A model generated the notes under the pieces. It was given only the letters and a program-made list of their open reading frames with translations, was not told where the DNA came from and searched no databases. Below are positions 14 to 13,498 of a DNA stretch of 13,990 nt, piece after piece. Both the position numbers and the translations under genes were made by a program. Numbering within the stretch: position 1 is the first letter of the stretch; every line of letters begins with the position of its first letter. Source of the stretch: Candidatus Eiseniibacteriota bacterium (GTDB lineage: Bacteria > Eisenbacteria > RBG-16-71-46 > JABDJR01); the NCBI GenBank assembly GCA_963783375.1, contig CAWANH010000018.1, positions 1-13,990 of the forward strand, given 5' to 3'.

Positions 14-460
14 ATGCCGATCGAGATCCACGGACTCCGCTCCGGCGATGAGCCGGTCCTGGAGTGCGTCGCCCCGGACGTCTTCGACCACGCGGTGGAT
101 CCGGACGCCGCCCGGCAGTTCCTCGCCGACCCCCGTCACCACCTCGTCGTGGCGCTGGAAGGCGGAGTGGTGATCGGCTTCGCCTCGGGCGTCCACTACC
201 TCCATCCCGACAGGCCCCGGCCCGAGCTCTGGGTGAACGAGATTGCGGTGGCTCCGTCCCACCGCCGGGGCGGCGTGGGACGCGCGCTCCTCGACGCCCT
301 GATCGAGATCGGCCGCGCCTTGGGCTGTGCCGAAGCCTGGGTCCTCACCGAACGGGGGAACCGCCCGGCCACCGCGCTCTACGCGTCCCGCGGCGGAGTG
401 GAAGCGCACTCCGGCACGGTGATGTTCTCCTTCCGGCTCGACGACTCCGGCCCCCGCTGA
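14..460 (+). CDS. GNAT family N-acetyltransferase
   Basis: 148-aa ORF. It has the acetyl-CoA-binding motif A (EIAVAPSHRRGGVGRALL, i.e. V..xxRxxGxG/A) and the C-terminal N-x-x-A-x-x-L-Y motif (GNRPATALYASRG). The substrate cannot be determined from sequence. Confidence 0.9.
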   Translation: MPIEIHGLRSGDEPVLECVAPDVFDHAVDPDAARQFLADPRHHLVVALEGGVVIGFASGVHYLHPDRPRPELWVNEIAVAPSHRRGGVGRALLDALIEIGRALGCAEAWVLTERGNRPATALYASRGGVEAHSGTVMFSFRLDDSGPR

Positions 461-630: not shown

Positions 631-1215
631 ATGAGAACACGAAATCCGTACCGGCGTCGGTGGATCCTCTCCGCTCTCTTCGGCCTCCTCCTGGTCTCGG
701 GGTGCGGCGAACGCACCGTCACCGGGGTTTTCCATCCCGACGCCATCCACATCGTTCGTTTGGCCGGGGACGGCATGACGCGTCTGAGGCTGGAGTTCTG
801 GCTGGACGGCGGCACGGATCCGCCGTCCCTGTGGGTGGCCGGCCAGGCCCGGAACAGCGGGGATAGACCGATCGCCTACTCGGGCCTCGTCTGCGGCTCG
901 GACGTGCCGGTGATCCGTCTGAAGGACGCCGACGGCGCCGAATACATTCTCGATGGTCCTCGTCCGCTCTGTCCCTCCGGCAAGTTGGTCATGACGCCGG
1001 GCCATGAATCCGGGTCCTACGCGTGGTACCGCGGATTCGCCTACCGGATCGGGTCCCCCAACCTGGTGGAGACCGCCCTTCCCCCGGGTCGCTATACCCT
1101 CTCGGCTCACCTGGACTACACCGTGGATCCCGGTTCGGGCCCGGTCCCGCGGTCGATCGAGGTATCGGCCGACATCATCCTGGAGGACCTCTGGCCGGCG
1201 AACCCGGCGGGGTAG
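631..1215 (+). CDS. hypothetical lipoprotein
   Basis: 194-aa ORF with a basic N-region (MRTRNPYRRR), a hydrophobic core (WILSALFGLLL) and a lipobox-like VSGC. GGAG lies upstream of the ATG. The mature part looks beta-rich and has two further Cys and an LPPGRYTL motif. Confidence 0.75.
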   Translation: MRTRNPYRRRWILSALFGLLLVSGCGERTVTGVFHPDAIHIVRLAGDGMTRLRLEFWLDGGTDPPSLWVAGQARNSGDRPIAYSGLVCGSDVPVIRLKDADGAEYILDGPRPLCPSGKLVMTPGHESGSYAWYRGFAYRIGSPNLVETALPPGRYTLSAHLDYTVDPGSGPVPRSIEVSADIILEDLWPANPAG

Positions 1216-1246
1216 ACCGGAAACCGGTCCCGGGAGACCTGCCGGC

Positions 1247-2014
1247 TCAGATCCCCCCGCCATCGATGAACTCCGGACCCTCGGCGGACCGCGCCGGACG
1301 GTGGGCCGAGAGCGCTCCGTCGGAGACCCGCGTCTCCAGTTGCTCCACCTTCTCGAACAGCACCTCCAGGGCGCGGACACCGTGGTCACCGCTGCTCTCG
1401 GCCAGGTCCATCCCCGGCCGTTCGCCGCGATCATGAACGCGGTCCAGGACGCGTCCGGCAAGCCCCACCACCGTGGCTCCCGGGGGAACGTCCTTGACCA
1501 CCACCGCGCCCGCGCCGATCCGCGCCCCGGCTCCCACCCGGAGCGAGCCCAGCACGTTGGCCCCGGCGCCCACCACCACCCCGTCTTCGAGGGTGGGGTG
1601 GCGCTTTCCCCGCTCCAGGCTCACCCCGCCCAGGGTCACCCCCTGGTACAGGGTCACGTCGTCGCCGATCTCCGCGGTCTCGCCGATCACCACCCCCATG
1701 CCGTGATCGATGAAGAACCGCCGCCCGATCGTCGCGCCGGGATGGATCTCGATGCCGGTCGCATCGCGCGCCACGTGGCTCAACCAGCGCGCGAGCAGGA
1801 ACCGGCGCCGCCCCCACAGGGCGTGGGCCATCCGGTGCATCCAGACGGCGTGAAGACCCGGGTAGCAGATGAGCACCTCGGCGGTGGTGCGGGCGGCGGG
1901 GTCGCGGGCGAAGACCGTGGCCAGGTCCTCGCGCATCCGTCTCACCCCGTGTACCGATCCGCGCGGCTCGGATGCGGGGCGATGATGGGCGAGGTTCGAC
2001 TCCGCGGTGCTCAT
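1247..2014 (-). CDS. cysE: serine O-acetyltransferase
   Basis: This is the C-terminal 255 aa of the 1247..3043 track ORF. The ATG at 2014 has GGAGG upstream and overlaps the cysK stop (ATGA). Motifs are [46 protein letters not shown] and KRHPT, with hexapeptide repeats. It ends in DGGGI (C-terminal Ile). Confidence 0.96.
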
Positions 2015-3015
2015 GATCGCCTCCCCGGGGCCCCGGTCGGCGCCGACGCGCCGGTGGCGCTCGTGTCGGCCTCGGCCACGGCGTCCTCGAACTGGAACAG
2101 GGGGGTGGAGAGGTAGCGCTCGCCGGTGTCGCAGAGGATGGTCACGATGGTCTTCCCGGCGTTTTCCGGCCGGCGGGCCACCTCCGAGGCGGCGTGGACG
2201 TTGGCCCCGGCCGAGATCCCGGCCAGGATGCCTTCGGTCCGGGCGAGCCGTCGAGTGGCCGCAAAGGCATCGTCGTTGGTCACGGTGAGAACCTCGTCCA
2301 CCACGGCGCGGTTCAGGTTTCCCGGGACGAACCCGGCCCCGATCCCCTGGATCTTGTGGGGGCCGGGCTTCCCTCCGGAGAGGATCGGCGAATCCGTCGG
2401 CTCCACGGCGATCGCGCGGAATCCGGGGCGGCGCCCCTTCAGCACCTCGGCGATGCCGGTGATGGTGCCGCCGGTCCCGACCCCCGCCACCACCAGGTCC
2501 ACCTCGCCGTCGGTGTCCGCCCAGATCTCCTCGGCGGTGGTCCGCCGGTGGACGTCGGGGTTGGCCGGGTTCTCGAACTGCTGGAGGATGATCGCGCCGG
2601 GGATCTCCGCCGCCACCTCCTCCGCCCGCGCGATCGCCCCCGGCATCCCGTTGGCGCCCGGGGTGAGGATCAGCTCCGCCCCCAGGGCGCGGAGAAGGTT
2701 CCGCCGCTCCACGGACATGGTGTCGGGCATGGTGAGGACGAGGCGATAGCCCCGGGCCGCGGCCACGAAGGCCAGGGCGATCCCGGTGTTGCCGCTGGTG
2801 GGTTCGACCAGGACGGTCGTTCCGGGTTGGATGCGGCCCTCGCGCTCGGCCGCCTCGACCATGGCCACCCCGATCCGGTCCTTCACGCTGGACAGGGGGT
2901 TCATGAACTCCGCCTTGCCCAGGATGCGCGCGCCGGCATCGGGGGCGAAACGGGAGAGCTCGATCAGGGGCGTTCGCCCCACGGCTTCGGTGATATTGCG
3001 TCGGATGTTCGCCAT
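2011..3015 (-). CDS. cysK: cysteine synthase A (O-acetylserine sulfhydrylase, PLP-dependent)
   Basis: The start [17 protein letters not shown] is at 3015, behind AAGGAG; 334 aa. It has the PLP lysine motif [52 protein letters not shown] and DTGERYLST. Confidence 0.97.
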
Positions 3016-3079
3016 GTCTGGTTCTCCTTGGGGGCTGCCGCAACGGCAGTCGGGATGGGCGAGGCCGGGGGGGGGGTAC

Positions 3080-3111
3080 GAAGAAAGCCCGCCGGCTTTC
3101 GCCGCGGGCCT
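3080..3111 (-). terminator. intrinsic terminator-like hairpin (putative attenuator) upstream of cysK
   Basis: The minus strand reads GCCCGC-GGC-GAAA-GCC-G-GCGGGC followed by TTTCTTC. This gives a 9-bp GC stem with a one-base bulge, a GNRA tetraloop and an imperfect U tract. It lies between the leader ORF stop and the cysK RBS. Confidence 0.7.
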
Positions 3112-3136
3112 GGCTTCCTCGGGAGTTTCGCTTCGT

Positions 3137-3259
3137 CTACGTCCGGGAGCGGTCTCCCGTTCGAGACGTCCGATCACTCGATCCGGCGGACGCACCGGCC
3201 CACGACCCGCAATGCGGGCAACAACAGCAGCAGTTGATGTGGTGGGTCGGACGGATCAC
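3137..3259 (-). CDS. putative poly-cysteine leader peptide, 40 aa: [40 protein letters not shown]
   Basis: GTG start at 3259 is preceded by GGGAGA with a 9-nt spacer. Codons TGC TGC TGT TGT TGC lie at 3232-3218, a sixth Cys at 3211-3209 and TAG at 3139-3137. The ORF sits directly upstream of cysK-cysE on the same strand and is not in the ORF track. Confidence 0.85.
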
Positions 3260-3294
3260 GGTTCGGATTCTCCCGTCTGGGTGCTGATGCACAA

Positions 3295-3323
3295 AGTATA
3301 ATGACCGATCCGGTCCTCTTCAA
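3295..3323 (-). promoter_or_regulatory. sigma70-type promoter for leader-cysK-cysE
   Basis: -35 TTGAAG (3323-3318), 17-nt spacer, -10 TATACT (3300-3295). It stands out in very GC-rich DNA. Predicted +1 is near 3290-3288, about 30 nt before the leader GTG. Confidence 0.8.
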
Positions 3324-3354
3324 TGGGTTTCTCGGAACGGGGCCGCCGGGACCG

Positions 3355-6300
3355 TCATGCCACCTGGGACGAGTCCTCGGCGGCCTTCCTCCGCCGTCCC
3401 CGCCAACCCTCCTCGAAGAGCGAGTAGACCACCGGGATCAGCACCAGGGTGACCAGGGTGGAGGTGGTGAGGCCGCCGATCACCACCCGGGCCAGGGGGG
3501 CCTGGGCCTCGCCGCCCTCGCCGGCCCCGAAGGCCAACGGCAGGAGCCCCAGAACCGTGGTCAAGGTGGTCATGAGGATCGGGCGGAGCCGGCGGGAGCC
3601 GGCCACGGTGATGGCGTCGTGGAGGGGGAGCTTGTCGCGGCGCCGGAGCAGGTTGGTGTAGTCCACCAGGAGGATCGCGTTGTTCACGATGATTCCGCCC
3701 AGCATGATGCAGCCGATGTAGGCGTTCAGGCTGAACGGGATCCCGGTCAGGACCAGGGCCAGCGCGACCCCGATCACCGCCATCGGCACCGAAAAGAGCA
3801 CCACGAACGGGTCGCGCAGGGACTCGAACTGGCCGGCCATGACCATGTAGACCAGGACCAGGGCCAGGATCAGTCCCAGCAACAGCTCCCGGAACGCCTT
3901 CTGCTGCTCCTCGTAGTCGCCGCCGATGATCACCGAGAAGTCCTTGGGCACCGGGATCCGGCCGATCGCCTCGCGAACGTCGCCCACCACCGACCCCATG
4001 TCGCGGCCGGTGAAGTTGGCGGAGACGAACACCGTGCGCTCCTGGTCCTTCCGCTCCAGGCGCACCGGACCCGTCCGCGGCTCCGACACCAGCACGTTCC
4101 GGAGCACCACCGGACGGCCCCGGTCGTTGGTCACGGTGAGGTCGAGCAGGTTCGAGAGGTCGCGCCGGTCGTCCTCGTTCAGCCGCACCATGATCCGGTA
4201 CTCTTTTCCGGCCTCGCGGTAGTTGGAAGCGTAGGTTCCTCCCACCGCGGTGCGGAGGGCCTCGCCGATCCGCGACACGCTCAACCCCAGGTCCGCCGCC
4301 TTCTGGCGGTCGATCCGGATCACCTCCTCCGGCCGTCCCTCCTCCCGGCTGATCCGGGCGTCGCTCACCCCGGGGACCTCGGCCACCGCCGCCCGTACCT
4401 GCTGGGCCAGCTCCCGGGCGGTGTCCAGGTCGTATCCCCGGATCTCCAGGCTCAGGTTGTCGCCGTCTCCTTGCCCCATCCGGAGGATCCAGAGGCCCTG
4501 TCCCGCCCGGGTGCGGACGGTGACCCCGGGGAGCGACGAGAGCGCGGGACGGAGCGCGTTGGCGATCTCCTCGCTGCTCCGGCGCCGCTCCGATTGGGGA
4601 ACCAGGGTGGCCCGGATGTTGGCGGTGTGTCCGCCGGAGGCCCGCCATCCCCCGCCTCCCACGCTCACCAGGATGGACTGGAGTTCCGGCACCTGGGCCC
4701 GGACGATCTCCTCCACCGAGCGGGTCATGCGGTCCATCACGTCCAGGCGCGTCCCCACCGCCATCTCGAGATCCACTCGCACCTCGCCCTCGTCGGAGGC
4801 GGGCATGAAGTCCACCCCGATGGTGGGGAGCAGCAACACCGACCCCACGAAGAGCGCCAGCGCGGAGAGGATCACCATGCGGCGGTGACGAAGGGCCCGC
4901 CGCAATACCCGGCCGTAACCCTGCTCCACCGCCTTGAACGCGGCCTCGCTGGCGTCGTAGACCCGGCCCGGGCCGCGGCGGGATCCGCCCGCCACCGCTC
5001 CCCGGAACCGGAGAAACCGCGCGCTCAACATCGGCACCAGGGTCAGCGCCACCACCAGGCTGCAGAGAAGAGAGAACGCCACCACGAAGGCGAGCTGCTG
5101 GAAGTAGATCCCCGAGATCCCCCGCATGAAAACCACCGGGAGGAACACCACCACCGTGGTCAACGTGCTGGCCACGATGGCGCTTCCCACCTCCTCGGTC
5201 CCCTGGAGCGCGGCGTCCCGGGGGGAGAGCCCGGTCTCCCGCAATCGATAGATGTTCTCCAGGACCACGATGGCGCTGTCCACGAGCATGCCGATCCCCA
5301 GGGCCAGGCCCCCGAAGGTCATCAGGTTCAGGGTGAACCCGCCGAAGTAGATCAGTCCGAAGGTGGCGATGATCGAGACCGGAATGGCGGTCGCGATGAT
5401 CACCGTGCTGGAGACGTTGCGAAGGAACAGGAGGAGGATCACCACGGCCAGGATGCCGCCCACCGCGGTGGCCCGCCCCACGTTCCGGATCGAGTTCTCG
5501 ATGTAGGTGGAGGTGTCGATCAGGGGGAGGAGCTGGATCTGGGGAATGTCCCGGTTGATCCGGGCCATCTCCGCCTTCACCGCCTGGGCCACCTCCACCG
5601 TATTGGCGCCGGATTGCTTGTTGATGGAGAGCCGAAGGCTGGGCTTGCCGTTAACCCGCACCCGGCGGGTGATCTCCTCCCAGGAATCCTCGACCCGGGC
5701 GAAATCGGAGATGCGGATGGGCGAGCCTTCACGGATGGCCACCACGGTGTTCCGGATCTCATCCAGGCTCAGGTACTCGCCCTGGGTCCGGATCAGAACG
5801 TCGAGGTTCCCGGTCTGGACGGTGCCGGCGGGGATGTTCTGGTTCTCCCGGTTCAGGGCGTCCAGGACGTCCGAGGTGGAGAGCCCCAGGGACTTCACCT
5901 GGTCGGCGTCCAGGTCGACGTGGATCTCCCGGGTGAGACCACCCCAGATGTCCACCGCGGCCACCCCGGCCACCCGCTCCAGGCGGTACTTCACCTGGTC
6001 GTCCACGATCTGCCGGAGATCGAGGGGGTTCACGTCGCTCGACACCCCGAGGATCATGACCGGGAAGGCGGAGAGATCGAACTTCCGGATGGTGGGGCGG
6101 TCCATGTCCTCGGGGAGGCGGCCGGTGATCCGGTCGATGCGGTCGCGGATGTCGTTCGCGGCCACGTCCAGATCCGCTCCCCAATCGAACGAGACCCGGA
6201 CGGAGCTGTTCCCCTCGGTGGAGACCGAGTTGATCTCCTCGACCCCCTGGACCGCGGCCACCGCCTCCTCGATGGGCCGGGTGACCAGGTCCTCCATCTC

Positions 6301-6471
6301 CTCCGGCCCCACGTTCCCGTACTGGGCGCGGATGCTGATGGTGGGGAAGATGATCTCGGGCATGAGATCGATGGAGAGGCGGAAGAACGAGACCAACCCC
6401 ACCGTGATCACGATGAGATAGACCATGGTGGTCAGGACCGGACGCTGGATGGGCCCCCGGGCGAGGCTCAT
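3355..6471 (-). CDS. RND efflux permease (AcrB/AcrD/AcrF family)
   Basis: 1038 aa with the N-terminal RPVLTTM..TM1, two large soluble loops and two TM bundles. Motifs are [46 protein letters not shown] and [12 protein letters not shown]. The start overlaps the MFP stop (ATGA). Confidence 0.96.
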
Positions 6472-7661
6472 GGCGCGTCACCGGCGCCGGGCGCCCGGGT
6501 GGTGTCCGAGGCCGGCCCGTGGGACGCGGTGAGGAGGATGGGGCTCCCATCCTCCAGGAGGTGCTGGCCCAGGGTGATCACGCGACCCTCGAGGTTCGGT
6601 TCCACGATCTGCACCCGGGATCCGGCGTGGATGCCCAGGGTGACGGGCACATAGCGCGCCACGCCTTCCGCCTCATCGGCCATGTATACCGCGTCGTGGT
6701 CGTCCCGCCGGACCACCGCCGACGCCGGCACGGACCGGGCCTCGGTCTCCGACGAGATCACCACCCGGACCCGGGAGAACATGCCGGGCTTGAGCTCATG
6801 GCCGGGGTTCGGGACCACGACCTCCATCTCGGCCACCCGGGACTCCTCTTTCAATACCGGGGCCAGCCGGGACACGCGGCCGGAGAAACGCCGGCCGGGG
6901 TAGGCATCCACCTCGACCTCGGCGGTCTGGCCGGGCCGGATGGAACCGTAGTCCCGCTCGATCACCGAGACCCGGACGTAGACCGTGTCCAGGCCGACCA
7001 CGGAAACCACCGCGGCGTTGACCGGAAGGAGCGCGCCCTCGTCCACCAGCCGCTCGCCCACGAGCCCCGGTTCCGCCGCCTTCAGCCGGGTGTAGCCGAG
7101 GCGGATCCGGGAGGCTTCAAGGGCGGCCCGGCGCTGGCTCACCTGGGCCTCGGCGAGCTGGGTGCGCGCCTTCTGGGCGTCGAACCTGGAGCTGGCGTTG
7201 TCCACGTCGGCGTCGGAGATGAGATCGCGTTCCCGGAGCGACCGCGACCGCGCGATTTCCTTTTCGGCCAGGGCCAAGGACGCCCGTGCCTCCTCCAGGC
7301 CGGCCCTGGCGATGTCCAGGTTCGCCTGGGCTTCGGCCTCGGCCTGGCGGTACTCGGCGTCGTCGAGGCGCGCGATCTCCTCGCCCGCCCGGACGCGGTC
7401 GCCGATCCGCTTCCCGAGCGCCACCACCCGGCCGGGCACCTTGGTGGCCACGAGGTATCGGTACTGGGGGAACACGGTGCCGGTGAAGAGCCGGACGTCC
7501 TGGATCGGCCCCACCGAGACCTCGGCCACGGTGACCGCGACCGCGGGGCGGCCCGATCGTCCCTGGGAATCGGCCCCGGAGGAACGGAGGTGATCCACCA
7601 GGCGCCACCCCAGGAGGAGAACGAAGGCCGAAACAGTCAGGACCAGGACGAGTCGTCTCAT
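6468..7661 (-). CDS. RND efflux periplasmic adaptor (membrane fusion protein)
   Basis: 397 aa with an N-terminal membrane anchor, lipoyl half-motifs (VPGRVVAL..IGDRVRAGEEIARLD), an Ala/Glu/Gln-rich alpha-hairpin, VDAYPGRRFSGRVSRLAP and LKPGMF. Confidence 0.95.
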   Translation of the reverse strand: MRRLVLVLTVSAFVLLLGWRLVDHLRSSGADSQGRSGRPAVAVTVAEVSVGPIQDVRLFTGTVFPQYRYLVATKVPGRVVALGKRIGDRVRAGEEIARLDDAEYRQAEAEAQANLDIARAGLEEARASLALAEKEIARSRSLRERDLISDADVDNASSRFDAQKARTQLAEAQVSQRRAALEASRIRLGYTRLKAAEPGLVGERLVDEGALLPVNAAVVSVVGLDTVYVRVSVIERDYGSIRPGQTAEVEVDAYPGRRFSGRVSRLAPVLKEESRVAEMEVVVPNPGHELKPGMFSRVRVVISSETEARSVPASAVVRRDDHDAVYMADEAEGVARYVPVTLGIHAGSRVQIVEPNLEGRVITLGQHLLEDGSPILLTASHGPASDTTRAPGAGDAP

Positions 7662-7706
7662 GGAGTCAGCGTCCCCGCGTGAAATGGGGGCAAAGGGGTG
7701 GGCGAA

Positions 7707-7735
7707 ATTCTAGGGGTTGAGCTTCCGAATCGCAA
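7707..7735 (-). promoter_or_regulatory. sigma70-type promoter for the MFP-RND operon
   Basis: The minus strand reads TTGCGA (7735-7730), a 17-nt spacer, then TAGAAT (7712-7707), 45 nt upstream of the MFP ATG. Confidence 0.6.
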
Positions 7736-7789
7736 TCATGGAAATCGGAACCCCCCCATCGGCGGTTCGCTCCACCGGCCGGCCGGCTC

Positions 7790-7798
7790 TGCTAGAGT
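7790..7798 (+). promoter_or_regulatory. putative extended -10 promoter element for the kinase/phosphatase operon
   Basis: TG-C-TAGAGT in the divergent intergenic region. No clear -35 is present. Confidence 0.4.
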
Positions 7799-7934
7799 AG
7801 GCGCCGGCAAGAGGGTGGGACCCGGGCCCGGCCCCCGGTTCCAGCCGGCCGGTTCCCGGCGGCCCCCGTCGGAGGCCGGGCCGGAAGGACAAACCCGGGC
7901 CGCGATCGAAATCCCCCGGAGTCGAGCGACACCC

Positions 7935-9614
7935 ATGAAATCCGATCTCAAGCTGGGCCTCTGGAGCACGGTCGACTCCCTGCGGAAGCTCCTCTCCGGG
8001 CTCCGGGACCCGCCCGCCGCCGGCCGGTACGCGCTTCGGACCGCCATGGAGCTCACCGGGAGCGAGGACGGATGCTTCGCGGTGCTCGCGTCGGGACGGG
8101 AGTTTCCCGAGATCCTCTTTCGCGCCCCGTCCTCCGGATCGTGGGACGTGGAGATGCTGGCGAAGTGCCTCCGCCACGGCCCCCGCGGAATCCCCTCCAA
8201 CGTGTTCATCGGGATCGTCACCCGGAAAGAGCGCCCCTGGGGCCTCCTGTGCCTTCGGAACCCGACGCTGTCGCCGGTCCGCCACTGCCGGCAGGCGGTG
8301 CGGGCCATCGCCTCCGCGGTCTCCGACATCGTGAGCGAATCAGACGAGCGCCGGGTGCACGAGGTGCGGGAGAGGATCGACCGGAAGCTCATGGAGCAGT
8401 ACGAGCCCAAGGACCTCCTGTACACGATCCTCCACGGGCTGCGTTCCCTCATCCGTTACGACCACTCCTCGTCGTTGCTCCTGGCCCGGCCGGGGGCGAC
8501 GGAGCTGGAGCTGGTGGCCGAGCAGATCGCGTGGACCAAGGGAAAGAGCACCCGGATCGGCACCCGGCGACCCCTCGCCGCGAACCTGATTCCCCCGGGG
8601 CGGAACGGCGACGTTCATCTCTTCGATCGCCGGAATGGGGTGTGGACCTCCACCGAGGCCTCGGGGTTCGATCCGAAGACCATCGAGACCAACCCCGGCC
8701 CCGACCCGGCCGGAGGTGTTCCCCCCGAAGGGGCCCTGATCTGCGCCCCCTTCCGCACACCGGAGGACACGGTGGCGGTATTGCGCGTGGCCGGCCTCGC
8801 TCCAGGCGCCTTCGGAACCTACGAGGCCAGGTTGGTGGACGCCTTCATTCCCCAGGTTTCCCTGGCCGTCCAGTACTCGGTGCAGCGCGAGACCTATCAC
8901 GAGCGGATCCGGGACGCCCAGCGCCGCCAGACCATCGTGAACGTGGCCCGCGGGATCGCCCACGACGTGAACAACGCGTTGGGGGCGGTGCTCCTGACCA
9001 TCCAGCAGATGCAGGCGGACGTCGAGGCGGGAACCGCCGAGCCCGCGCCGCTGGCGGAGCGGCTTCGGAGCAGCGAGAAGGCGGTGCAGACCTGCCGCCG
9101 GATCTTCGACGGCATGCTCACCGTGGCCCGGGGCCCCGGCCGGCGGGCGGTGGGCCACGGCAACCTCCGCCGGGCGGTGGAAAGCGCGCTCGGGATCTAC
9201 TCCGAGGCTCTCCAGAAGCGGCAGATCGTCACCGAACTCCGCCTTCCCCCCGATCTCCCGGCGGTGCGTTGCGGCCAGAACGATCTCACCTCGCTCTTTC
9301 TGAACCTGATCGGAAACGCCAAGGACGCCATGCCGCGCGGCGGGGGGATGGAGATCGCGGCGGTCCTGAAGGACGGCGAGGTGACGGTGGAGGTCACCGA
9401 CACCGGCTCGGGGATCTCGGAGGACAACCTGAACCGGGTGGGTGAGCCCTTCTTCACCACCAAGACCTCGGGCACCGGGCTCGGGCTCTCGATCTGCCAG
9501 GCCATTCTCGCCGACGTGGGGGGGCGCCTCCGCATCCGGAGCCGCGAGGGCGAGGGGACCCGGGTGGCGATGTGGATTCCCGTGGTCTCGGCGGCGCCGG
9601 GGGACGGGTCATGA
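7935..9614 (+). CDS. soluble sensor histidine kinase (probable GAF-like input domains, HisKA, HATPase)
   Basis: H-box GIAHDVNNALG, N-box NLIGNAKDAM, G1 DTGSGI, F-box EPFFTTK and G2 GTGLGLS. No hydrophobic TM segment is present. The start is placed at ATG 7935 (MKSDLKL, 559 aa) because the 79-codon upstream extension is Pro/Gly/Arg-rich and overlaps promoter elements; this start is uncertain. Confidence 0.92.
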   Translation: MKSDLKLGLWSTVDSLRKLLSGLRDPPAAGRYALRTAMELTGSEDGCFAVLASGREFPEILFRAPSSGSWDVEMLAKCLRHGPRGIPSNVFIGIVTRKERPWGLLCLRNPTLSPVRHCRQAVRAIASAVSDIVSESDERRVHEVRERIDRKLMEQYEPKDLLYTILHGLRSLIRYDHSSSLLLARPGATELELVAEQIAWTKGKSTRIGTRRPLAANLIPPGRNGDVHLFDRRNGVWTSTEASGFDPKTIETNPGPDPAGGVPPEGALICAPFRTPEDTVAVLRVAGLAPGAFGTYEARLVDAFIPQVSLAVQYSVQRETYHERIRDAQRRQTIVNVARGIAHDVNNALGAVLLTIQQMQADVEAGTAEPAPLAERLRSSEKAVQTCRRIFDGMLTVARGPGRRAVGHGNLRRAVESALGIYSEALQKRQIVTELRLPPDLPAVRCGQNDLTSLFLNLIGNAKDAMPRGGGMEIAAVLKDGEVTVEVTDTGSGISEDNLNRVGEPFFTTKTSGTGLGLSICQAILADVGGRLRIRSREGEGTRVAMWIPVVSAAPGDGS

Positions 9615-10735
9615 AGCCCCGGATCCTGATCGTGGACGACGATCCCGAAATGCTTCTCGCGGTGGAGTCGGTCCTCGCCGCCGACTACGAGGTGCGCGCG
9701 CTCCGCGACTCCGCGCGCGCGGAATCCGAGGCCTCGAGCTTCCGCCCGCACATGGCGATCCTGGATCTCCGCATGCCGGAAGTGGACGGCTTCACCCTGC
9801 TCAAGCGGTTGAAGGAACGCATGCCGCACCTCCAGGTCATCCTGATGACGGGAAGCGTCTACGATCTGGACCGGGACCTGGTGCGGTCGGTGCGGGAAAA
9901 GGCGTTCTACTTCATCCAGAAACCCTTCGACCGGGAGGTGCTCCTGACCCTGGTCGAGCGGTGCAACGAGATCCGCGTGCTGGAGGAGGACAAGCGCCGG
10001 CGCCTCAGGGACCTGACCCGGGAACTCGAGGAGGCGGCGCGGTTCCAGCGGAGCCTCCTCCCGCCGGGAGACGCGGGGGCGGCCGGGCTCCGGGTGGCGG
10101 CGCGGCTCCTTCCCCACGATCCGGTGGCCGGGGATCTCTACGACTACGCGGCCGCGGGAGGCGGGGCCTCGTTCCTGGTCGCCGACGTGGTGGGTCACGG
10201 GGTGTCCGCCGCCCTCCTCACCGGGATCGTGAAGGCGGCTTTCGGCGCTTCCCACGCCGAGGGATATGATCCGCTGGCCGTGGTCCGTCGGGTGCGGGCC
10301 GGGTTCCAGGGCTTCCCCCCCGCGCTGTTCGCCACCCTGCTCTGCGCGCGGGTGACCCCGGGCGAAGGAACGCTGGAGTACGTGAACGCCGGGCATCCGG
10401 AGGGTGTGCGCCAGACCCCGGACGGAAGGACCGCGCCGCTCGATTCCACCGGGCCCATGGTGAGCGCCCTCTTCGACGACGCTTCGTGGTCCTCCGCGAG
10501 GCTCCCCTGGGCGGCCGGGGACCGCCTGGTCCTGGTCACCGACGGCCTGCTCGAGGCCCACCGCGGGCATGAGGAGTTCGGTCGGGAACGCCTCCTCTCG
10601 CTGGTGGAGGCGGGCCGCCGCCTGGACGGCCCCGGGCTCGCCGATCGCATCACCGGGGCGGTTCGCAAGTTCGTCCCCAAGGGCGATCTTGACGATGACC
10701 TCACCCTGATGGTGGTGAGCGGCGGCCGGCGATGA
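9611..10735 (+). CDS. response regulator receiver fused to PP2C/SpoIIE (RsbU-type) Ser/Thr phosphatase
   Basis: ATG 9611 overlaps the kinase stop (ATGA); 374 aa. Receiver motifs are ILIVDDD, LDLRMP, MTG and QKPF. The linker is ELEEAARFQRSLLP. PP2C motifs are AGDLYD, VADVVGHG, NAGHP, TDGLLEA and DDLT. Confidence 0.94.
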   Translation: MKPRILIVDDDPEMLLAVESVLAADYEVRALRDSARAESEASSFRPHMAILDLRMPEVDGFTLLKRLKERMPHLQVILMTGSVYDLDRDLVRSVREKAFYFIQKPFDREVLLTLVERCNEIRVLEEDKRRRLRDLTRELEEAARFQRSLLPPGDAGAAGLRVAARLLPHDPVAGDLYDYAAAGGGASFLVADVVGHGVSAALLTGIVKAAFGASHAEGYDPLAVVRRVRAGFQGFPPALFATLLCARVTPGEGTLEYVNAGHPEGVRQTPDGRTAPLDSTGPMVSALFDDASWSSARLPWAAGDRLVLVTDGLLEAHRGHEEFGRERLLSLVEAGRRLDGPGLADRITGAVRKFVPKGDLDDDLTLMVVSGGRR

Positions 10736-10975: not shown

Positions 10976-12334
10976 TTGGCCGACGAAACTCCCCCCCATT
11001 CGAGTGCCTTCCGAGTCCGCCGCATCGCCAACTGGTTTCCCCTGGGCATCACCTACGCCACGTTCTACATGGGGCGCTACAACTTCAACGTGGTCAAGGG
11101 CACCATGGGCGATGTCTACCATCTGGACAAGGCCCAGATGGGAGCCATCGCCACCGCCGGGTTCTGGACCTACGCCCTCAGCGTGATCTTCATCGGCCCC
11201 CTGGCCGACCGGATCGGAGGGCGGAAGGCGATTCTCATCGGGGCGGCGGGGGCCGCGCTCCTCAACCTCACCATGGGACTCCTGTTCCTGGGCGACATGA
11301 TGACCAAGCTCATCGTCTCGATGTCGCTCCTCTACTCCCTCAACATGTTCTTCCAGAGCTTCGGCGCGCTCTCCATCGTGAAAGTGAACTCCGCCTGGTT
11401 CCACGTACGGGAGCGGGGGGTCTTCGGCGGCATCTTCGGGATCATGATCTCCAGCGGCTACTTCCTGGCCCTGGCCATCGGCGGCTGGATCCTGGCCCAT
11501 CTGGGCTGGAAGATGGTGTTCATCGTGCCGTCGATCGCCATCTTCACGATGTTCGTGATCGACATCTTCATCGTGAAGGACCGGCCCTCGCAGGCCGGCC
11601 ACCCGGACTTCGACACCGGAGACGCCTCCGCCGGCGACAATTCGCCGGTCAACCTGGGATACATCGCGAAGAAGGTGTTCGGAAACCCCATCCTCCTCAC
11701 CCTGGCCGCGGCGGAGTTCTGCACCGGGTTCGTGAGGCAGGGGCTCCTCCTCTACTTCACCGAGTTCCTCAAGGAGGTCCACCACATCGCCCCGGGATCC
11801 ACCCAGTACTGGTGGACGGGGACGGGGGTGACGATCGGGGGAATCGTCGGGGGTCTCCTCTGCGGATGGATGTCCGACAAGCTATTCCAGTCACGACGGC
11901 CGCCGGTGGCCTTCATCTTCTATATCGGCCAGGCCCTCTCGCTCACCGCCCTCGGGTTCACCCACTCGGGGCTCATGGCCACCTTCCTGATCGGCTTCTC
12001 GTGCATGTGGATCTTCGGAGTCCACGGCATGCTCTCGGGAACCGCCTCCATGGACTTCGGGGGCACGAAGGCGGCGGCCACCGCGGCGGGGATGCTGGAC
12101 GGCGTCCAGTACGTCGCCGCCGGCCTCACCGGGTTCGGCTTGGGGTGGATCCTGGACCGCTTCGGATGGGACGGCGGGGCCGCGACCGCGGGCCATGTCG
12201 CCACCAACGCTCCGGTCTGGGTGTTCTCGATCATCCCGTTCTCTATCCTGGGAGCGCTCATCATGACCCGCATCTGGCGGGCCATGCCCAAGCGCGCGGT
12301 TGCGCTGGCGCCGGGAAATTCCGAGGTCGAGTAG
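10976..12334 (+). CDS. MFS transporter, organophosphate:Pi antiporter (GlpT/UhpC/UhpT)-like
   Basis: 452 aa with a TTG start behind AGGAGG and about 12 hydrophobic segments. It has MFS motif A (GPLADRIGGRK; GWMSDKLFQSRR), WFHVRERG and the OPA-type arginines in FYMGRYNF and GFVRQG. Confidence 0.9.
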   Translation: MADETPPHSSAFRVRRIANWFPLGITYATFYMGRYNFNVVKGTMGDVYHLDKAQMGAIATAGFWTYALSVIFIGPLADRIGGRKAILIGAAGAALLNLTMGLLFLGDMMTKLIVSMSLLYSLNMFFQSFGALSIVKVNSAWFHVRERGVFGGIFGIMISSGYFLALAIGGWILAHLGWKMVFIVPSIAIFTMFVIDIFIVKDRPSQAGHPDFDTGDASAGDNSPVNLGYIAKKVFGNPILLTLAAAEFCTGFVRQGLLLYFTEFLKEVHHIAPGSTQYWWTGTGVTIGGIVGGLLCGWMSDKLFQSRRPPVAFIFYIGQALSLTALGFTHSGLMATFLIGFSCMWIFGVHGMLSGTASMDFGGTKAAATAAGMLDGVQYVAAGLTGFGLGWILDRFGWDGGAATAGHVATNAPVWVFSIIPFSILGALIMTRIWRAMPKRAVALAPGNSEVE

Positions 12335-12487: not shown

Positions 12488-13498
12488 TTGAAGGACTGGA
12501 CCCGCGACGAGAAGATCGAGTACCTGAGGACCAAAGGCCTGGCGGAGATCCACCGCCACTTCGACGGCGCGGTCCGCCCGACCACCCTCTGGAACCTCTC
12601 CCAGAAGTACTACTCGGCCATCCCGGGCATGGACTTCGAGGGCTTCGAGCGGATGCTCTCGTGGGACAAGGCGCACGACCGCAGCCTCCTCGACTACCTC
12701 GACAAGTTCCACATCCCCCTCCAGTACACCCAGTTCTACGACAACATCCGCACCATCACCTTCGAGATCTGCGAGGACGCCTACCGGGACGGCGTCCGGG
12801 CCCTCGAACTCCGGATCAATCCCATCATCCACCGCCGGGCCGGCCTCACCTCGCGCCAGGTCCTGAACGCGGTTCGGGCGGGGATGAAGGACTCGCTGGT
12901 CGAATACCCCGACCTCGAGTTGGGGATCACGGTGATCGCCATCCGAGGCCACGGCGGGAACATGGCCAAGATCCTTCTCCGCGAGGTCGTGGGAGAGTTG
13001 GCCGCGTACCACCAGAGCCCCGGCGTGGTGGGGTTCGACATCGCGGGGGCCGAGCGCCCCTTTCCGCCCGTGCTCTTCAAGGAGGCCTATGCCCTCGCTG
13101 CCCAGATGGGCCTCCGGCTCACCGCTCACGCCGGGGAGGACTCCGGTCCCCGAAACGTCTGGTCGGCGGTGGACGATCTGGGGGTCGAGCGGGTGGGCCA
13201 CGGCACCTCCGCCGTGGAGGACAAGGAACTCATGAGGCGCCTGGCCGCCGATCGCGTGACCCTGGAGGTGTGCATCTCCTCCAACCTCCAGACCGGAGCG
13301 GTGGAGCGGATCGATCATCATCCCATCCGCCGGTTTCTCGAAGCCGGGATTCCGGTCACCCTGGCCACCGACAATCCCACCGTCTCCGCGACCACCCTCA
13401 CCGCGGAATACCTCCTGGCCATCGAGAACTTCGGTCTGACCCAGGAAGAGGTGGATCACCTGATCGAGACCGGCCGGACCTCCTCCTTCGTCGGTTGA
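12488..13498 (+). CDS. add: adenosine deaminase (amidohydrolase superfamily)
   Basis: 336 aa with a TTG start behind GGAGGAGG. Motifs are the Zn-binding EIHRHFDGA, GFDIAGAE, catalytic TAHAGE, RVGHG, EVCISSN and ATDNP. Confidence 0.9.
   Translation: MKDWTRDEKIEYLRTKGLAEIHRHFDGAVRPTTLWNLSQKYYSAIPGMDFEGFERMLSWDKAHDRSLLDYLDKFHIPLQYTQFYDNIRTITFEICEDAYRDGVRALELRINPIIHRRAGLTSRQVLNAVRAGMKDSLVEYPDLELGITVIAIRGHGGNMAKILLREVVGELAAYHQSPGVVGFDIAGAERPFPPVLFKEAYALAAQMGLRLTAHAGEDSGPRNVWSAVDDLGVERVGHGTSAVEDKELMRRLAADRVTLEVCISSNLQTGAVERIDHHPIRRFLEAGIPVTLATDNPTVSATTLTAEYLLAIENFGLTQEEVDHLIETGRTSSFVG

Follow-up and report, generated by a model that had tools for sequence, protein, structure and literature searches.

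The trp operon of E. coli and the his operon of Salmonella carry the classical leader-peptide transcription attenuators, as summarized in the available text of Canestrari et al. (10.1101/834739). For cysteine, the same text describes polycysteine leaderless sORFs in mycobacteria that make up a "Cys ribulon", among them Ms5788A and, before cysK1-cysE, Rv2334A. Ms5788A is leaderless and acts on translation through sequestration of the Shine-Dalgarno (SD) sequence, and the mechanism at other loci was left open. To the authors' knowledge, attenuation by a uORF had not been described for cysteine before, and a 2026 paper, in the part available, cites the system as translational. Two sets of predictions are also relevant, each taken from the accessible part of its source. 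In Rhodobacterales, uORFC-8-2 before cysS was predicted as a Cys uORF with an intrinsic terminator, where stalling is presumed to give read-through (PMC8632094). In actinobacteria, Cys leader peptides were predicted before cys and cbs operons, no terminator hairpins were found and Rho was proposed (PMC1262725). The literature covered here, main texts only and with subscription journals mostly outside the coverage, held no Eisenbacteria leader and no tested terminator-type cysteine attenuator.

Here we describe a poly-cysteine leader in the window, the whole 13,990-nt stretch of Candidatus Eiseniibacteriota DNA that was analyzed. The original prediction was a cysteine-sensing attenuator coupled to a terminator. 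That reading is supported by leaders in relatives, by a predicted competing antiterminator and by matched changes in antiterminator and terminator sequences.

Organization of the leader upstream of cysK-cysE

The features of the leader and of the two genes that follow it are as below.

3295..3323, minus strand: sigma70-like promoter, -35 TTGAAG (3323-3318), 17 nt, -10 TATACT (3300-3295)
3269..3274, minus strand: SD-like GGGAGA of the leader ORF, 10 nt 5' of the GTG, with GGAG at 3273-3270
3137..3259, minus strand: leader ORF of 40 codons, proposed name cysL, GTG at 3259 and TAG at 3139-3137
3242..3250, minus strand: segment 1, predicted in both the centroid and the MFE fold to pair with segment 2 (3203-3195) in ribosome-free RNA
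3218..3232, minus strand: five tandem Cys codons, TGC TGC TGT TGT TGC, the putative sensor
3205..3219, minus strand: short hairpin at the end of the Cys run, whose 3' strand contains a sixth Cys codon, TGC (3211-3209)
3197..3206, minus strand: segment 2, the antiterminator strand, predicted to form 10 bp with 3110-3101
3081..3110, minus strand: intrinsic-terminator-like hairpin (segments 3 and 4, 3110-3086) with a U-rich tail (3086-3081), 26 nt 3' of the leader stop
3035..3049, minus strand: small hairpin directly 5' of the cysK SD (3029-3024), with a hairpin of differing sequence at the same place in G001 and G002
2011..3015, minus strand: cysK, cysteine synthase A, 334 aa (TIGR01139, 449 bits, cut-off 351)
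1247..2014, minus strand: cysE, serine O-acetyltransferase, 255 aa, overlapping the cysK stop (TIGR01172, 241.5 bits, cut-off 210.7)

The order of promoter-like site, SD, ORF, Cys run, complementary segments, hairpin with U-tract and cysK-cysE can be read directly from the DNA. The elements that had been predicted are in place on the minus strand: the promoter, the SD-led ORF with five tandem Cys codons and a sixth, a run that mixes TGC and TGT, and a terminator-like hairpin followed by two genes that pass the NCBIfam cut-offs. The promoter had been placed about 30 nt before the ORF; the layout is as described, but 35 nt separate the end of the -10 box from the GTG. It was the single promoter-like site between 1000 and 3400, compared to 0.2 +/- 0.4 in shuffled sequences, and would place the transcription start near 3288. 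Both same-genus relatives, G001 and G002, also have a -10 hexamer 35-36 nt 5' of the GTG. The GGGAGA is identical across the source genome (G000) and these two relatives, which retain the start, frame and stop of the leader ORF. The ORF had no match in NCBIfam. A GTG at 3292, which would open a 51-aa ORF, was rejected as the start: only 2 nt separate it from the -10 box, and neither relative has it.

The Cys run is not expected by chance. After dinucleotide shuffling of the 280-nt leader, a run of at least four Cys codons was seen in 0 of 20,000 sequences. The 4.73-Mb assembly contains six runs of at least four TGY codons, and the only two with five are the leader run and its copy on contig C28. 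The window lies on contig C18, which is a 98.4% duplicate of C28:436757-450005 of the same assembly and probably represents a strain variant. The two leaders are identical from promoter through terminator and, therefore, the copy provides no independent evidence.

The terminator-like hairpin at 3110-3086, with the tail TTTCTT, has a predicted stability of -27.1 kcal/mol (z -2.37), and its U-tract is short (5 T in 8). A simple terminator scanner did not call it, probably because of a bulge. The small hairpin at 3035-3049, kept within the genus with differing sequences, could stabilize the read-through RNA.

Conservation in relatives

The phylum is represented in the genome collection by one class with 206 genomes. 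The leader was sought at 28 cysK(-cysE) loci, namely the best 7 of 30 CysK loci and 21 further loci from a CysE search, from which 3 duplicates, 2 loci without a cysK start and 2 without an adjacent cysK were left out; the first two matches of that search repeated G000 and G001. A Cys leader was present at 17 of the 28 loci and absent at 11, so the proposed check for a conserved in-frame Cys run upstream of cysK came out in favor of the prediction. Fifteen of these leaders have at least three tandem Cys codons and two have a pair with further Cys nearby. All 17 keep an in-frame start codon 9-11 codons 5' of the run and an in-frame stop before the hairpin. A hairpin with a T-rich tail follows the stop by 23-36 nt in 16 of them, and the last has a hairpin with a poor tail. 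No Cys run of three or more was found within 500 nt of the remaining 23 CysK loci, and no leader was found at six cysE-first (cysE-cysK) operons of the same family in the phylum. The same-genus genome G003 (98% complete) had no close cysK-cysE match.

The cysK leaders fall into two types. Six leaders from four families resemble the window leader, with an SD-like motif in five and a -10 hexamer 35-40 nt upstream in four. The other eleven, all from family f10, have a different sequence. Ten of these have a -10 hexamer only 9-10 nt before the ATG, which suggests that they are probably near-leaderless. In a CysK tree made by a quick method, five of the six loci of the first type grouped in one clade (support 99), and the f10 loci fell in another (100) together with leader-free operons. 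This patchy distribution suggests transfer or repeated gain and loss. One assembly, G102, carries two related leader copies (L384 and L130) with four and three Cys codons and differing flanks; the cysK start that follows the second copy breaks off about 40 codons in.

Other targets and wider searches

Cys leaders were also found before other sulfur genes, and the 22 leaders analyzed have 2-7 tandem Cys codons each. A Cys leader with a terminator precedes sat in 3 of 27 sat loci (G050, G052 and G054), in operons that include sulfite reductase, PAPS reductase and a PLP enzyme. In G050 and G052 (L421 and L422), the operon continues through sulfite reductase, PAPS reductase, the PLP enzyme and a JAB-domain protein to a small protein, which we take to be MoaD/CysO-like; these operons look like a sulfur-carrier route to cysteine. 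The G052 sat leader (L318:309-491) has seven Cys codons and no in-frame ATG, GTG or TTG. An ATC nine codons upstream is a possible non-canonical start. In G144, a Cys leader of the same layout stands before an operon of an ATP-grasp gene and a luciferase-like monooxygenase gene. No Cys run or leader was found upstream of G000's own sat and cysS.

Pattern searches added little. Poly-TGY scans of the phylum gave counts close to those of reversed-pattern controls, and inspection of 30 + 29 + 20 loci yielded four new leaders. A sequence-only model of the six SD-type leaders, run on 151 of the 206 genomes, recovered its training members except those of G033 and G055 and matched two already-seen leaders weakly (E 5e-4); 14 other weak matches were inspected and held no leader. 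A motif of the f10 leaders had 12 exact matches, all of them cysK leaders or their duplicates. Among its listed matches with one mismatch, none had a Cys run in front except the known G096 leader.

A metagenome pattern scan returned at least 118 loci, mostly by chance, with one convincing leader (L256) and none before cysK. L256, on the minus strand of a 630-base contig, is a three-Cys leader ORF with a terminator before a downstream gene, presumably a peroxiredoxin from its appearance, of which a 56-aa piece had no Pfam match. Among CysK relatives from 80 named genomes outside the phylum, a sense run of at least three Cys codons within 500 nt was found in two, both Mycobacterium, and an antisense run also in two. 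The Mycobacterium loci L079 and L095, with TGT-rich poly-Cys ORFs of 9 and 4 codons before cysK-cysE, served as positive controls.

Codon usage and the leader peptide

The Cys runs are rich in TGT. It makes up 51 of 64 run codons, counted in relatives that are kin, and 2 of the 5 in the window. In 1,862 long ORFs of G000, picked by a heuristic, TGT makes up 11% of Cys codons (732/6,482). The only tRNA-Cys found has the GCA anticodon and, thus, UGU would be read by wobble. A preference for UGU may sharpen sensing, and pairing needs could explain it too.

TRAP is an RNA-binding sensor protein that acts in antitermination. The UGY repeats could likewise be a binding site for such a protein, or act through pairing only, with the ORF being incidental. 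The excess of TGT over the 11% in long ORFs fits this idea, as does the ease with which GU-rich RNA pairs and the lack of protein-level conservation of the peptide. Such a role is nevertheless unlikely. The in-frame start and stop are kept in every cysK leader, extra Cys codons interrupted by other codons occur in the same frame in G020, G103, G102 and G094, and the targets are sulfur genes.

Substitutions between G000 and G001 are spread evenly over the codon positions of the leader (9/9/6), unlike those in cysK (20/10/74), and change 14 codons non-synonymously and 3 synonymously. These data suggest that the peptide is not the selected unit and is likely a by-product. It is, therefore, quite improbable that the nascent peptide itself acts on cysteine, redox state or metal, whether as an arrest peptide or as a small thiol- or metal-binding protein. 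The sequence CCCCC-P-H-C does resemble a metal-binding motif, and an Arg follows the run in 15 of the 17 cysK leaders. However, the selection seen is not of the protein type, no peptide beyond the run is common to the families, and the His-Cys is limited to the genus and lies within the hairpin. The Arg codon of the f10 leaders forms the base of a hairpin, the counterpart of 3205-3219, in which two pairs show compensatory changes on both sides.

Predicted folding and covariation of the proposed switch

In the ribosome-free RNA, a 5' helix occupies segment 2 and the terminator is also formed, with a terminator probability of 0.92. When the 5' part was removed, 3206-3197 paired with the 5' arm of the terminator (3110-3101) over 10 bp (z -3.40; 1 of 200 shuffles as stable), and this antiterminator structure still won when the RNA was extended to 3075. 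The ribosome was then walked along the ORF and the RNA 3' of it was folded up to the U-tract. The terminator probability was at most 0.05 with the ribosome on any codon through Cys5 and 0.72-0.92 beyond. The switch at the end of the Cys run held for footprint edges from +9 to +15, and at +18 it failed only for Cys5. By the time the ribosome is at the sixth Cys codon, the terminator has formed in the models (0.72-0.91 for the four footprint settings), suggesting that this codon is probably structural rather than a sensor codon. Of the six Cys codons originally proposed, the run of five thus keeps its place as the putative sensor, but the sixth does not, as it lies past the switch point in a hairpin strand.

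When the fold was extended to the cysK start, the MFE structure regained the terminator even with the ribosome on Cys3. The antiterminator would therefore be a transient state, which attenuation needs and which equilibrium folding cannot prove. A competing antiterminator is predicted in silico for the window, depending on where the folded RNA ends; in the f10 leaders it is weak. Equilibrium switching, taken as a terminator probability below 0.5 on the run and above 0.8 at the stop, was seen in only 4 of 22 leaders. The terminator of G002 was weak (0.09) even with the ribosome at the stop. The pairing of segments 1 and 2 is present in the ribosome-free fold. By duplex energy, 33% of shuffles were as good for this leader, and only 2 of 17 leaders had a 1:2 duplex that was better than shuffles at <5%.

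A kinetic proxy was also calculated, which scores whether the terminator arm is taken before its partner is made, with 25 shuffles per leader. In 21 of 22 leaders its value was higher for a ribosome on the run than for one at the stop, part of which is trivial. The proxy exceeded the shuffled mean in 20 of 22 leaders and reached the 5% level or better in only 7 of 22.

Ten leaders, one for each of 9 genera and one from a metagenome contig, were examined for matching changes in the antiterminator and the terminator. In a test region chosen after the sequences had been inspected, the stretch 4-32 nt after the run paired better with its own terminator arm (-17.5 kcal/mol) than with those of other leaders (-13.7 kcal/mol; permutation p 1.2e-4). 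Without the metagenome contig, p was 1e-5, and two control regions gave p 0.70 and 0.28. The leader's own arm was the best partner in only 4 of 10 rows, and the test was not significant for the 11 f10 leaders alone (p 0.16). In a 6-sequence alignment, 87.5% of antiterminator cells pair, compared to 39-50% in slid controls, and a change on both sides was found in only 1 of 10 antiterminator pairs.

The folding also bears on a mycobacteria-like translational attenuation, in which the stalled ribosome frees the cysK ribosome-binding site. This mechanism was shown for Ms5788A (10.1101/834739, available text), and a hairpin adjoins the cysK SD in the window. It is very unlikely here, as the predicted accessibility of that SD does not change between the three states (0.61, 0.62 and 0.60), and the SD lies about 55 nt 3' of the terminator-like hairpin that all leaders keep.

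Neighboring genes and the source genome

The other genes of the window are as follows.

3355-7661, minus strand: RND efflux permease and adaptor, the upstream neighbor
7698-10735, plus strand: histidine kinase and response regulator-phosphatase
10976-12334, plus strand: MFS transporter
12488-13498, minus strand: presumably an adenosine deaminase-like gene
14-460, plus strand: GNAT acetyltransferase
631-1215, plus strand: 194-aa ORF with no NCBIfam match

The upstream neighbor of the leader varies, being an RND gene in G000 and G002 and a divergent gene in G001, and the leader stays with cysK. That the hairpin is a fixed terminator, of the RND operon or Rho-assisted, with cysK transcribed from its own promoter behind it, is extremely unlikely: the same-strand RND gene stops at 3355 and no intervening terminator was called, rho is present and a C-tract follows the hairpin, but no promoter-like site was found between hairpin and cysK, G001 has the same leader under its divergent neighbor, and the Cys run would be left unexplained.

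Neither a T-box nor a SAM-I riboswitch was found in G000, and Rfam covariance models gave only a 19-bit chance match to MIR531 across 2900-3500. A crude scan of G000 for further attenuators recovered the cys leader and no other convincing candidate. Two chorismate-binding genes had no Trp leader directly upstream, and hisG was not found in this 97% complete assembly. There was no match over the cut-off to the Acidobacterial ADOP family. Among the 120 S3 relatives listed for G000, the five that carry an organism name all belong to Candidatus Eisenbacteria, the best at 85% identity, and the assignment to this lineage is likely. G000 has 103 FlgD-Ig domain matches and, besides rho, a second partial rho-like gene. 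In this assembly, many of the small contigs are duplicates of large ones. Near codon 123, cysK on C28 carries a one-base insertion, which is either a variant or a read error. No alignment to C28 was obtained for about 720 bases of the window (631-1349).

Proposed mechanism

Based on the sequence and the folding models, the leader is probably a classical ribosome-mediated transcription attenuator of the trp/his type, placed before cysK-cysE and responding to cysteine. The transcription start, translation of the ORF, ribosome pausing, termination and the cysteine response are all inferred. When charged tRNA-Cys is scarce, the ribosome would wait at 3232-3218 and keep segment 1 away. Segment 2 (3206-3197) would then be available, and the terminator's 5' arm (3110-3101) could pair with it while being synthesized. 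The terminator would not be ready as polymerase crosses the U-tract, and transcription would read through into cysK-cysE. When cysteine is plentiful, the ribosome would move through segment 2 as far as the stop, which lies 26 nt 5' of the hairpin, and the terminator would form. If the ORF is not translated, 1:2 pairing would likewise leave the terminator to form.

Taking the phylum as a whole, we lean slightly towards an Eisenbacteria cysteine "ribulon" of true transcription attenuators. Its poly-Cys leaders, each with a terminator and an antiterminator, would stand before operons for sulfate assimilation and organosulfur monooxygenases as well as before cysK-cysE, with SD-led and near-leaderless versions on separate cysK clades and with the rare wobble codon UGU sharpening the sensing. 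If so, cysteine biosynthesis would gain its missing trp-type attenuator.

Comparison with known systems

In the sources available, the sole tested cysteine leader system is the mycobacterial one, which acts on translation, and the only printed account of a terminator-type cysteine attenuator is the cysS prediction. The locus described here gives a complete predicted switch of 210 nt with named helices and a first look at how an uncultured phylum may control its genes. It also provides natural pairs for comparison, SD-led with near-leaderless leaders and UGU with UGC sensor codons. The principle of attenuation is well known and, therefore, the surprise is moderate. The SD-led, terminator-coupled version had been proposed as possibly undescribed; no Eisenbacteria report was found in the literature covered, but a terminator-coupled Cys uORF in a diderm had already been predicted (PMC8632094, accessible part). 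The novelty is thus in the full switch, the lineage and the targets, not in the idea.

The predicted actinobacterial leaders share the Cys-codon runs in a leader ORF before cys genes. As far as the available text describes them, their runs are near the stop and come without terminator hairpins, whereas here a conserved hairpin and U-tract follows. According to its accessible description, uORFC-8-2 is a Cys-codon uORF that was predicted in a diderm bacterium together with an intrinsic terminator. In that description it differs in having two Cys codons at positions 14-15, mostly UGC, with cysS as the target and no antiterminator helix named. The Eisenbacteria leaders, compared with it by description only, have 2-7 codons, mostly UGU, and target cysK-cysE and sulfur assimilation.

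The mycobacterial "Cys ribulon", as presented in the available text, is similar in its poly-Cys sensor ORF, in targeting cysK-cysE and in serving several sulfur operons through separate leaders. In contrast, the ORF here is SD-led, its run is in the first half, and it is coupled to a terminator and antiterminator. Its start is not leaderless, with an SD present and the -10 box 35 nt before the GTG, although 10 of the 11 f10 relatives come close. SD sequestration is not predicted either, as accessibility stays at 0.60-0.62 in all states. The window leader falls outside the leaderless translational class of mycobacteria.

In layout, the leader resembles the classical trp and his attenuators. Sequence and folding together give the tandem-codon ORF, the terminator hairpin and the predicted antiterminator helix expected of such a system. 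Shared with trp and his are the short leader ORF with its tandem codons for what the operon makes, the predicted alternative 2:3 and 3:4 helices, and a terminator-like hairpin before the first gene; a 1:2 helix is seen in the ribosome-free fold. Here, the amino acid that would be sensed is cysteine, a gap of about 85 nt separates segments 2 and 3, and the ORF continues for 26 codons beyond the run. Further differences are the lineage, likely Ca. Eisenbacteria, and the relatives that probably apply the same logic with near-leaderless starts.
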